Shown here one piece after another: positions 61,959-63,890 of a stretch of 64,000 nucleotides of DNA. The stretch lies in NCBI RefSeq assembly GCF_051058965.1, contig NZ_CP183924.1; one strand, 5' to 3'. Position 1 is the stretch's first letter. Every line of letters begins with the position of its first letter. The position numbers were made by a program, and so were the translations under genes. This DNA is from Corallococcus exiguus. GTDB taxonomy: Bacteria > Myxococcota > Myxococcia > Myxococcales > Myxococcaceae. The notes below the pieces were generated by a model. That model was not told where the DNA came from, ran no database searches, and worked only from the letters and a program-made list of their open reading frames with translations.

Positions 61959-62375
61959 TCACTCATGGGCGCTCCGTCGCTTTTTCATGATCCAAACATA
62001 CGCCCTGGCGAGTTCTCCGCGGATGCTATCGAAGTCCCAGTTGATGATAGATATGCCGCGCATGCAGTCTGGAATGCTCCCTGGTGAGTCGCGACGAATC
62101 TGTACCCCGAAAATGGGCAGGCGCAGCCTCCGGGCGCACTCCACCTCCCAAATCGCACCACGCGCGAGATGCGTCTCCATGCCAATCAGCAGAATGAGAA
62201 GACTACTATTTTCGATCAATCCGCGCGTATGCATCTTCCAGGCATTGTCATCCAAATCTTCTCGAAGCGAGTTGTCTTCAAATGTCCACGGCGTGGCCGA
62301 GAACTGGCTCTGACGAACCAAGAAATCCCGGGCCCACATGTCCTCTGAAGCAAAGCTGATGAACGCGCGTAGCAT
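61959..62375 (-). CDS. Stand-alone TIR-like domain protein (138 aa; ThsB-like)
   Basis: MLRAFISFASEDMWARDFLVRQSQ...LLILLIGMETHLARGAIWEVECARRLRLPIFGVQI has the pattern of an FxSxxxxD TIR N-terminus plus a WExE-like catalytic segment. It is minimal and carries no other domain. Confidence 0.55.
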   Translation of the reverse strand: MLRAFISFASEDMWARDFLVRQSQFSATPWTFEDNSLREDLDDNAWKMHTRGLIENSSLLILLIGMETHLARGAIWEVECARRLRLPIFGVQIRRDSPGSIPDCMRGISIINWDFDSIRGELARAYVWIMKKRRSAHE

Positions 62376-62387
62376 GGGCTCTTTGGG

Positions 62388-63890
62388 TCAGCTCAGCATT
62401 TCATCCAGTCCAGCCTTCTTGCGGAGCTTGCGCTCCGCGTCCTCCGCCCAGGGAAGTTGCTCTCCTCGCCGTGCCCTCGCCTGCCGGATGAGGCGCAGGT
62501 TGCGCTGTGTGGACTCTGGCTCCCAGGGCTCACGTACAGCTGCCAGCGCCTTGCCCAATGCATCAGCAGCGGCCGCCGAATCCCGGGATAGCACCGCCAG
62601 CTCAAGCAGAGTGGCGTAGTCCCAGTAGTCGGATGCCCGCGCTGACATCTTCCGCGTAACCGCGTAATGGACCACGGGCAGAAGTTCATCACTCCGGGCA
62701 TCGGGAGGCTCGTGGAGTTCCATCAGTGTCACCGCGTTGACCCCCGGGTAGGCGTCCCGGATATCCGCGTCGAAGCCCTTCAGGTAGGTCTCGATTGCCT
62801 TGTCCAGGAGAGCACGCGCCTCATCTTCATTACCCGCCTCATGCGCTGCCTCCCAACGGTCCTTGTAGACGCGTCCGAGAATGCCCAACGTTTCGGATGA
62901 CGCGCCCCGCTTCGAGATGAGCGAGAGCAGCGTCTCCTCCGCCGCATCGCCACGTCCCGTACGGTTGAGCGCGAATCCCCGCTGCTCCTGCACCATCACC
63001 GTCTCGCGAATTTCCACGGGCAATCGGTCGATGAATGCGACCATCTCGGGCCACGCCTTCACGGCCCGGTAGGAGAGCATTGCGTCGATGAGCACGCCCG
63101 CCTCCAACTCTCCCAACGGCCTGAGTCCCTGCAGGACGTCATCCACCGCCGTAGCGCTCTTCTGCTTGCGCGCCGCCGCGAATCCTCGCTTGGCATCTTC
63201 CGAGTACTTCGCCTGCTGGCGGAACAGATCCGTCTTCTCGTGAGCCACCTGGACGGGAGCTAGATAGTCGAGCAATTGGTAAACCGGGCTGTCGATGCTC
63301 GGGCGGTTTGCATCGTCTCGAGCAGCCTTCAGGGTGGCCGCCAGCTTCTTGCGACTGGCGGCCACATCCTTGGGGACGCCAGAGTCATCCAGGGCATAGG
63401 GCATGGAGCGCAAGTAGTTGACATCGAAAGGCAACCGCATCCCCTCCGTGAACATGGACACGGTTCTCCACGGTCGAACCGCGTGTCGCACGCCCAACTC
63501 ATAGAAGACGTTGGCATTGGCGGTGGTGAGGTCCGCCACCGCGTAGGCACAGAGGATGAGCCGCTCGAACATCGCCTTGTGGATGATTCCGCCAGCCTGC
63601 TCCTCATCCGCGCGAATGGGTTCCAGACCGGCATCCGAAATCGCCGGGGCGATGATTTGTCGGTACACCTCATCGAAGTCGATGAGCCGGCCAGTACCTT
63701 CCGGCTTCTTGCCGAAGGGCATCAACACGAAACAGAGTGAATTGTTCATGAAATCCTCAGGGTGCAAACAGAAGGACGCAGCCTGGCTGCTTCGCGCTGT
63801 AGCGCCACTCGCACGTGCGGCGAGAAATCGTGGCCCGCACCTCGACCAGCGCGGCCGTGGCCGTAACCGTGATTCCGGCCACCCTGACAA
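62388..63890 (-). CDS. DUF4071-like protein: an N-terminal Rossmann-like (TIR/SLOG/2-deoxyribosyltransferase-like) domain fused to an alpha-helical TPR-like domain
   Basis: The N-terminus MNNSLCFVLMPFGKKPEGTGRLIDFDEVYRQIIAPAI... has the CFVLMPFG signature of this family. The rest is a helical TPR-like array. The gene sits 12 nt upstream of the small TIR gene on the same strand. Confidence 0.55.
   Translation of the reverse strand: MSGWPESRLRPRPRWSRCGPRFLAARASGATARSSQAASFCLHPEDFMNNSLCFVLMPFGKKPEGTGRLIDFDEVYRQIIAPAISDAGLEPIRADEEQAGGIIHKAMFERLILCAYAVADLTTANANVFYELGVRHAVRPWRTVSMFTEGMRLPFDVNYLRSMPYALDDSGVPKDVAASRKKLAATLKAARDDANRPSIDSPVYQLLDYLAPVQVAHEKTDLFRQQAKYSEDAKRGFAAARKQKSATAVDDVLQGLRPLGELEAGVLIDAMLSYRAVKAWPEMVAFIDRLPVEIRETVMVQEQRGFALNRTGRGDAAEETLLSLISKRGASSETLGILGRVYKDRWEAAHEAGNEDEARALLDKAIETYLKGFDADIRDAYPGVNAVTLMELHEPPDARSDELLPVVHYAVTRKMSARASDYWDYATLLELAVLSRDSAAAADALGKALAAVREPWEPESTQRNLRLIRQARARRGEQLPWAEDAERKLRKKAGLDEMLS

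Follow-up and report, generated by a model that had tools for sequence, protein, structure and literature searches.

A probable type VIII Thoeris-like module pairing a DUF4071/TPR-S effector with a small TIR protein in Corallococcus exiguus

Towards one end of a 64,000-nucleotide stretch of the Corallococcus exiguus genome (contig NZ_CP183924.1, assembly GCF_051058965.1; hereafter the window), two adjacent genes on the minus strand encode a large protein with a Rossmann-type N-terminal domain and a helical remainder, and a small protein that is essentially a single TIR domain. An earlier note on this DNA had proposed that they form a two-gene Thoeris-like module with a novel partner, and we examine that proposal here. 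The large, thsI-like gene occupies positions 62388 to 63749 and the small, thsB-like gene positions 61959 to 62375. Both open reading frames (ORFs) are confirmed, as is the spacer between them, which when read directly from the sequence is 12 nt long from the TGA of the large gene to the ATG of the TIR gene (62376 to 62387, minus strand). This short same-strand spacer implies that the genes are operonic and that expression of the two is probably coupled. A scan of 61400 to 64000 for sigma-70 promoters and terminators gave no match, a result that is uninformative for a high-GC myxobacterium.

The large ORF as listed runs from 62388 to 63890 and encodes 500 residues from a TTG codon, which is the length given in the earlier note. 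Its homologues, when aligned, all begin 3 to 8 residues ahead of an LCFVLMPFG motif, and an ATG at 63749 has a GAGGA sequence 4 nt upstream. For these two reasons the protein most likely comprises 453 residues and the 500-residue ORF is over-extended. Comparison with the orthologues in Corallococcus exercitus gave ratios of nonsynonymous to synonymous substitution rates of 0.085 for the large gene (96% amino acid identity) and 0.16 for the TIR gene (87% identity); as both ratios are low, both genes are functional and under purifying selection. The TIR protein is the faster evolving of the two, which fits a conserved effector served by a quicker-changing sensor.

The assignment of the large protein to the DUF4071 family is borne out by a match to Pfam MAP3K_TRAF_bd (PF13281, the renamed DUF4071; E=6e-45), and a second match is to Pfam TPR-S (PF20308; E=1.4e-23); the C. 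exercitus orthologue is named 'DUF4071 domain-containing protein' at NCBI. NCBIfam gave no match for this protein, for the small TIR or for a validated ThsI effector described below. The N-terminal domain (residues 1 to 150; 63300 to 63749) likewise gave no Pfam match when isolated, either from the window protein or from the validated ThsI. The PADLOC 'Effector TIR' model PDLC00733 matches residues 26 to 120 (E=6e-8), and a profile of the N-terminal 150 residues matches the DNPH1/Rcl nucleotide N-hydrolases in the PDB (E=7e-5), with the glutamate of a YELG motif aligned to that of the GYELG motif in those enzymes, which we take to be the catalytic nucleophile of the family. Asn78, Asn80 and Glu84 (codons 63516-63518, 63510-63512 and 63498-63500, minus strand) are invariant across 17 diverse homologues, including the validated ThsI. 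The domain is thus likely to be a DNPH1/MilB-like N-glycosidase (DrHyd), and as such the predicted catalytic output of the protein. The rest of the protein (residues ~170 to 453; 62391 to 63242) is a helical TPR-S domain resembling the central regulatory domain of ASK1, and is predicted to be the sensor of a TIR-made signal. Burroughs and Aravind reportedly predicted in 2020 that the TPR-S scaffold senses NAD+-derived signals (NAD+, nicotinamide adenine dinucleotide), and the Pfam entry glosses the S as 'Sensor'; Kaur et al. (eLife, 2020 and 2021) mention neither TPR-S nor DUF4071. The earlier note had seen an SLOG-like signal-binding domain at the N terminus and an output in the helical repeats. 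Neither Pfam nor PADLOC returned an SLOG match, the profile places the N-terminal domain in a DNPH1/MilB-like sister group, and the two roles are probably reversed.

The small protein of 138 residues is, as had been supposed, a bare ThsB-type TIR domain, and an NCBI entry for C. exiguus is 100% identical to it. It matches Pfam ThsB_TIR (PF08937) above the curated cut-off (E=1.8e-6) and the PADLOC ThsB model (E=2.5e-6). In its AlphaFold2 model strands alternate with helices, which fits a TIR-like α/β fold, and the Foldseek matches of the model support that fold: the best is 8fz9, a TIR protein of B. cereus (BcTir; E=2e-5), and the next are TIR-APAZ, ThsB (9b7d, 8wcf and 6lhy) and the TIR domain of MyD88. 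The outcome that the earlier note had named as a refutation, a small ORF with no predicted TIR fold, thus did not arise. BcTir is also the best PDB match by sequence (phmmer, E=1e-3). Trp76 and Glu77 (codons 62145 to 62150, minus strand) are invariant in 12 relatives and align with the WE motif of ThsB proteins, including the validated ThsB; Glu77 is, by homology only, the putative catalytic glutamate. The phmmer alignment places H-E-V of BcTir opposite W76-E77-V78, so that a glutamate at the ThsB-type catalytic position is present in BcTir, a protein described in the preprint on the B. cereus system as being without a catalytic glutamate (K37).

Type VIII Thoeris has been described by Yirmiya et al. 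as a ThsB TIR protein with an effector, ThsI, that is annotated 'CMP hydrolase and TPR'; two such systems, from Yersinia and from a Pseudomonas scaffold, were validated for defence, and the type is found mainly in Pseudomonadota (bioRxiv 10.64898/2025.12.03.692087). The locus of the validated system from the Pseudomonas metagenome scaffold Ga0265295_1000171 (L087) was fetched by means of its TIR sequence, which is given in Table S1; there a ThsI of 412 residues (2748 to 3986) is followed after 2 nt by a ThsB of 134 residues. This ThsI carries the same pair of Pfam domains, TPR-S and MAP3K_TRAF_bd, as the Corallococcus protein, and the two proteins align over their full lengths (residues 5-413 against 7-397; BLASTP E=1e-40, 28% identity), with an identity of ~50% in the first 100 residues. 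The partner therefore loses its novelty: the DUF4071/TPR-S protein is the known ThsI/Tpr effector. The 138-residue TIR is 27% identical to the ThsB of this locus (BLASTP E=3e-7). A full-length ThsI lies directly upstream of ThsB, with a gap of 1 to 7 nt, at 16 of 23 loci anchored on ThsB proteins of the validated clade; these 16 are all the loci with enough upstream sequence for a full-length ThsI, and the other seven show a contig end, a partial or C-terminal TPR-S match only, or no ThsI match. Several loci of this clade have extra ThsB genes on either side, and one (L095) has the order ThsB-ThsI-ThsB that is found in Corallococcus. The validated locus and a related one also encode, a few genes downstream of ThsB, a second and shorter protein (259 to 281 residues; L087:6973-7818 and L101:6057-6836) with a ThsI-type N-glycosidase domain and no TPR-S; its hidden Markov model matches have E values of 6e-25 and 3e-12, and its matches to Pfam Nuc_deoxyrib_tr are weak.

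The Corallococcus pair thus shares with type VIII Thoeris an effector of full-length homology in which an N-terminal 'CMP hydrolase'/DrHyd domain precedes TPR-S, the conserved glycosidase residues of that effector, a bare ThsB-type TIR of ~130 to 140 residues encoded directly downstream in the same orientation, and the occasional presence of extra ThsB genes. It differs in that its ThsI forms a clade of its own, in that its TIR is nearer to TIRs labelled as type IV among the Table S1 entries compared, and in its host, a myxobacterium. The resemblance to type I Thoeris, which consists of ThsA (SIR2-SLOG) and ThsB, is one of logic: the cyclic messenger that a small and variable ThsB TIR makes from NAD+ switches on a conserved effector with a dedicated sensor domain, and several ThsBs per effector are common. 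In the window, however, the sensor of the effector would be the helical TPR-S domain and its output a DNPH1/MilB-like glycosidase, and the type I signal is 3'cADPR whereas that of validated type VIII is canonical cyclic ADP-ribose (cADPR). Pfam and PADLOC found neither SLOG nor SIR2 in either protein, and hence the pair is not a type I system.

A second ThsB-like gene lies upstream of thsI. Its 3' end (63929 to 64000, minus strand), which is cut by the end of the window, begins 179 nt upstream of thsI, and the 23 codons at 63932 to 64000 encode NNHRGMKVVEWNSQELIDTVRGW before the stop. This peptide matches the C terminus of a 128-residue protein encoded at the corresponding place in C. exercitus (L005:8057-8443), which has a Pfam ThsB_TIR match at E=1e-8; gene content beyond the window end is taken from that species. 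By analogy with the multiple ThsBs of other Thoeris systems, this upstream protein probably feeds the same ThsI.

The genes lie in a TIR-rich island that covers both strands from 51508 to the end of the window at 64000 and that stands out by its GC content at third codon positions, which is 0.65 to 0.75 in island genes and 0.93 to 0.96 in the genes just to the left; the island is horizontally acquired. Outside the two-gene module, Pfam matches identify a TIR_2 protein of 760 residues (51508 to 53790, plus strand), a TIR-nSTAND1-WD40 protein of 1384 residues (53840 to 57994, plus strand) and a TIR-WD40 protein (58264 to 61707, minus strand), the last from an ORF that runs to 61962 and has its likely start at ATG 61707. 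With the small TIR, the cut 128-residue ThsB and the TIR-related N-terminal domain of ThsI, at least six TIR-domain genes are counted in the island of the window. The syntenic island of C. exercitus has at least eight, including genes for CAP12-PCTIR_TIR and TIR_2+Y4lF proteins. Where the TIR-WD40 gene lies downstream of the small TIR in C. exiguus, C. exercitus has only a gap of ~1 kb (L005:10417-11471), so that island content differs between the sister species.

We surveyed the neighbourhoods of both genes. Homologues of the large protein number more than 7,700, and its own clade, at 55 to 62% identity, extends over Acidobacteriota, Nitrospirota, Gemmatimonadota, Bacteroidota, Ignavibacteriales, Proteobacteria, Actinobacteria, Planctomycetes and an archaeal metagenome-assembled genome of the Nitrososphaeraceae. 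Such conservation, together with a patchy distribution, is unusually high for a defence effector; patchy spread at high identity across phyla points to horizontal transfer rather than to vertical inheritance of a housekeeping gene. At 80 loci from many phyla anchored on close ThsI homologues (L007 to L086), all-against-all BLAST clustering of ORFs found no single conserved neighbour. The sole real cluster was a Patatin-TPR-S protein of ~887 residues at 12 of the 80 loci, the other clusters being antisense shadow ORFs, and for this reason domain-level scans were needed instead. In these scans the co-directional neighbours of ThsI homologues were enriched in TIR_2, ThsB_TIR, TPR-S, Patatin, SLATT, nSTAND1 and CHAT domains, and at least one TIR ORF lay within 6 kb at 27 loci. 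At the 12 loci with the Patatin and TPR-S gene, it stands directly downstream of ThsI (for example L038:7345-10002, L045:3819-6482, L055:7140-9830 and L060:2937-5537), so that two different TPR-S effectors stand in tandem, often without an intervening TIR gene.

The small TIR belongs to a very small family of 10 proteins. The thsI-TIR pair is kept in C. exercitus, and a metagenome contig has the order ThsI, ThsI paralogue and then small TIR; with the window, these make three of seven independent contexts in which a ThsI-type gene lies upstream. Two of the seven have a DUF4062-AAA_16 STAND NTPase, and two have other TIR genes only or nothing recognisable. Close orthologues in Pyxidicoccus and on two metagenome contigs have a DUF4062 and AAA_16 STAND NTPase (1102 residues) in the place of ThsI (L001:4485-7793, L118:3-500 and L116:2247-2453), which suggests reuse of the same TIR module alongside another partner. 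The pairing of thsI with the TIR gene is therefore recurrent and not obligate, in keeping with the report that single TIR clusters are commonly paired with different effectors (bioRxiv 10.64898/2025.12.03.692087).

The survey also brought up a recurrent cassette beside ThsI or a SLATT (ThsH-like) effector, which consists, in this order, of a PfkB-like kinase, a TIR_2 fused to a TGT-like domain, an Ogg-HhH protein, a QueC-like protein and a ThsB-like TIR of 155 to 162 residues. It is found in Agrobacterium, Salmonella, Nitrospira and metagenomes (L112/L113:1108-5468, L114/L115:2250-5489, L110/L111:1133-5468, L057:282-3512, L071:1685-5971, L097:6141-8207 and L099:74-1780); the window has no such cassette. 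Its terminal TIR is a distant relative of the 138-residue TIR (~27% identity), and a third profile search with the small-TIR alignment was dominated by TIRs of this kind (those of L057 and L071) and not by close relatives. The cassette is not mentioned in the text of Yirmiya et al., and a search of the available literature found no paper on it.

The observations made at this locus, that is the architecture of the pair, its homology to ThsI, the gene order and spacing, the catalytic residues, the purifying selection and the defence-island context, are those of a type VIII Thoeris-like anti-phage signalling module, and we consider it probable that the pair is one. The architecture and the recurring pairing uphold the idea that the two genes form a Thoeris-like module, in which a bare ThsB-type TIR works with a signal-responsive partner; what lies here belongs to a known type of system, predicted in 2020 and validated in 2025, and is a diverged new example of it rather than a new system. 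In such a module the small TIR, with Glu77, would act as both infection sensor and signal synthase and, on phage infection, would convert NAD+ into a messenger of the cADPR type, which is canonical cADPR in both validated systems. Binding of the messenger by the C-terminal TPR-S domain of ThsI would switch on the N-terminal N-glycosidase with its Asn78, Asn80 and Glu84, and the activated enzyme would destroy an essential nucleotide pool (NAD+, nucleoside monophosphates or both), leading to growth arrest and an aborted infection. The second ThsB-like protein would probably supply the same effector. Defence, phage-dependent synthesis of cADPR and toxicity triggered by cADPR have been shown only in homologues, in published work: a type VIII TIR expressed alone led to phage-dependent canonical cADPR in cells, and externally added cADPR was toxic to cells with a type VIII system (bioRxiv 10.64898/2025.12.03.692087). 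From these we infer the same function for the Corallococcus proteins, as well as the identity of the signal and the substrate of ThsI.

Several findings weigh against this reading. Identity between the large protein and the validated ThsI is no more than 28%, and the former falls in a separate clade. The confidence of the AlphaFold2 models is moderate, with a predicted local distance difference test score of 70.8 for the small TIR and of 50 to 85 for the N-terminal domain of ThsI. Among the entries of Table S1 of Yirmiya et al. that were compared, TIRs labelled 'Caspase - Type IV' match the small TIR more closely (E=5e-16) than do the ThsBs of the two validated type VIII systems (E ~2e-6), and hence the messenger of the small TIR may not be canonical cADPR; motifs of the 138-residue TIR had no match in the part of that table that was available. 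No TIR lies within 6 kb at 53 of the 80 ThsI-anchored loci, only three of the seven small-TIR contexts have a ThsI-type neighbour, and the orthologues in Pyxidicoccus and metagenomes adjoin the DUF4062-STAND NTPase or other TIR genes. Finally, a preprint on a similar operon credits signal synthesis to the Tpr protein and not to the TIR.

It is possible, if unlikely, that the ThsI of this clade is not half of a fixed pair and serves instead as a shared hub effector that is fed by several TIR sensors. Candidate sensors would be the products of the ThsB-like genes on either side of it and, perhaps, the island's TIR-STAND-WD40 and TIR-WD40 proteins. In genomes with no linked TIR, which make up two thirds, ThsI would either depend on sensors encoded elsewhere or be autonomous, as reported for BcTpr. 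As the 138-residue TIR is nearer to type IV-associated TIRs, the messenger might be other than canonical cADPR.

A less likely explanation follows that preprint, in which the BcTir/Tpr operon of B. cereus was found to encode a protein with a MilB-like N-terminal glycosidase and a TPR region, here BcTpr, and in which both genes were required for defence, the N82A and E86A substitutions in BcTpr abolished it, and BcTpr rather than BcTir depleted NAD+ and made a cADPR isomer, with the TIR described as inactive and regulatory (bioRxiv 10.1101/2023.05.26.542521). The two operons are alike in joining a small TIR to a glycosidase-TPR protein, and, both by sequence and by structure, BcTir heads the PDB matches of the 138-residue TIR; they differ in that the signal maker proposed for B. 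cereus is the Tpr protein. By the published numbering and the NxNxxxE motif, the residues reported as key in BcTpr, I10/M11, N80/P81/N82 and E86, correspond to L9/M10, N78/A79/N80 and E84 here, so that the equivalent Asn and Glu residues are kept in the ThsI of the window. On this model the large protein would be both signal maker and NAD+ depleter, cyclising NAD+ to a cADPR isomer that licenses further NAD+ hydrolysis, and the small TIR, as a non-catalytic regulatory subunit, would bind to this protein and hold it in check or tune it. The many ThsI homologues without a linked TIR, at two thirds of our loci and at 29 of 78 in the BcTir/Tpr preprint, would also be consistent with this. Against it stand the phage-dependent canonical cADPR made in the presence of a type VIII TIR alone and the toxicity of added cADPR (bioRxiv 10.64898/2025.12.03.692087), as well as the fact that the 138-residue TIR has kept the invariant Trp-Glu pair at the position that is catalytic in ThsB. 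As 8fz9 also has a glutamate at this position, the argument from an inactive TIR is not simply transferable, and the B. cereus model derives from one preprint that has not been peer reviewed.

We think it improbable that the two genes are neighbours without being partners, with the small TIR serving other components of the island or acting as a stand-alone NADase, and standing beside thsI because defence genes cluster, while the true partner of ThsI is the 128-residue TIR encoded upstream or one that is unlinked. Orthologues of the small TIR that are 72 to 79% identical occur without ThsI in Pyxidicoccus and in metagenomes, as described above; TIR-domain genes abound in the islands of both Corallococcus species, and the small TIR resembles type IV-labelled TIRs, in the portion of Table S1 covered, more than the validated type VIII ThsBs. 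However, the 12-nt same-strand spacer and the ThsI-then-ThsB order are the canonical ones of the validated clade, the arrangement is kept in C. exercitus despite the differing TIR-WD40 gene downstream, and a member of the small-TIR family follows two ThsI-type genes on an unrelated metagenome contig. Moreover, as one and the same TIR cluster is reported to be joined commonly with different effectors (bioRxiv 10.64898/2025.12.03.692087), alternative partners are to be expected and are no argument against partnership here. We regard as very improbable a role of the DUF4071/TPR-S protein outside immunity, as a conserved, DNPH1-like metabolic N-glycosidase of nucleotide salvage: its unusually high conservation across many phyla and an archaeal genome, the lack of a conserved neighbour at most loci and the DNPH1-like N-terminal domain would suit that role, but its homologues are experimentally validated defence effectors, TIR, SLATT, Patatin-TPR-S, nSTAND1 and CHAT genes are over-represented among its neighbours, the gene lies in an acquired island of low third-position GC, and its patchy spread at high identity points to horizontal transfer.

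The type VIII reading adds a myxobacterial and strongly diverged example to a Thoeris type with only two validated representatives, and the comparison ties the former DUF4071 family (MAP3K_TRAF_bd and TPR-S) directly by sequence to a validated ThsI; the Pfam name of the family was not found in the type VIII description (bioRxiv 10.64898/2025.12.03.692087). It makes testable whether several TIR sensors can act through one ThsI, whether the messenger is the same for TIRs from different clades, and which substrate the glycosidase attacks. If ThsI does prove to be a hub, the locus would represent a TIR network of many sensors and one effector in a multicellular bacterium, loosely parallel to the signalling from TNLs to helpers in plants. 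The N-terminal and TPR-S domains also have homologues in the regulatory half of animal ASK1 (MAP3K5), that is in its thioredoxin-binding domain and central regulatory TPR region, and nowhere else in it. Unlike ASK1, the bacterial protein has no kinase match in Pfam and ends after TPR-S at residue 453, its N-terminal domain keeps a glycosidase-type catalytic glutamate, and its predicted role is in phage defence and not in the regulation of a stress kinase. Because of this homology, a ligand found for the bacterial TPR-S domain would bear on the origin of ASK-type signalosomes.

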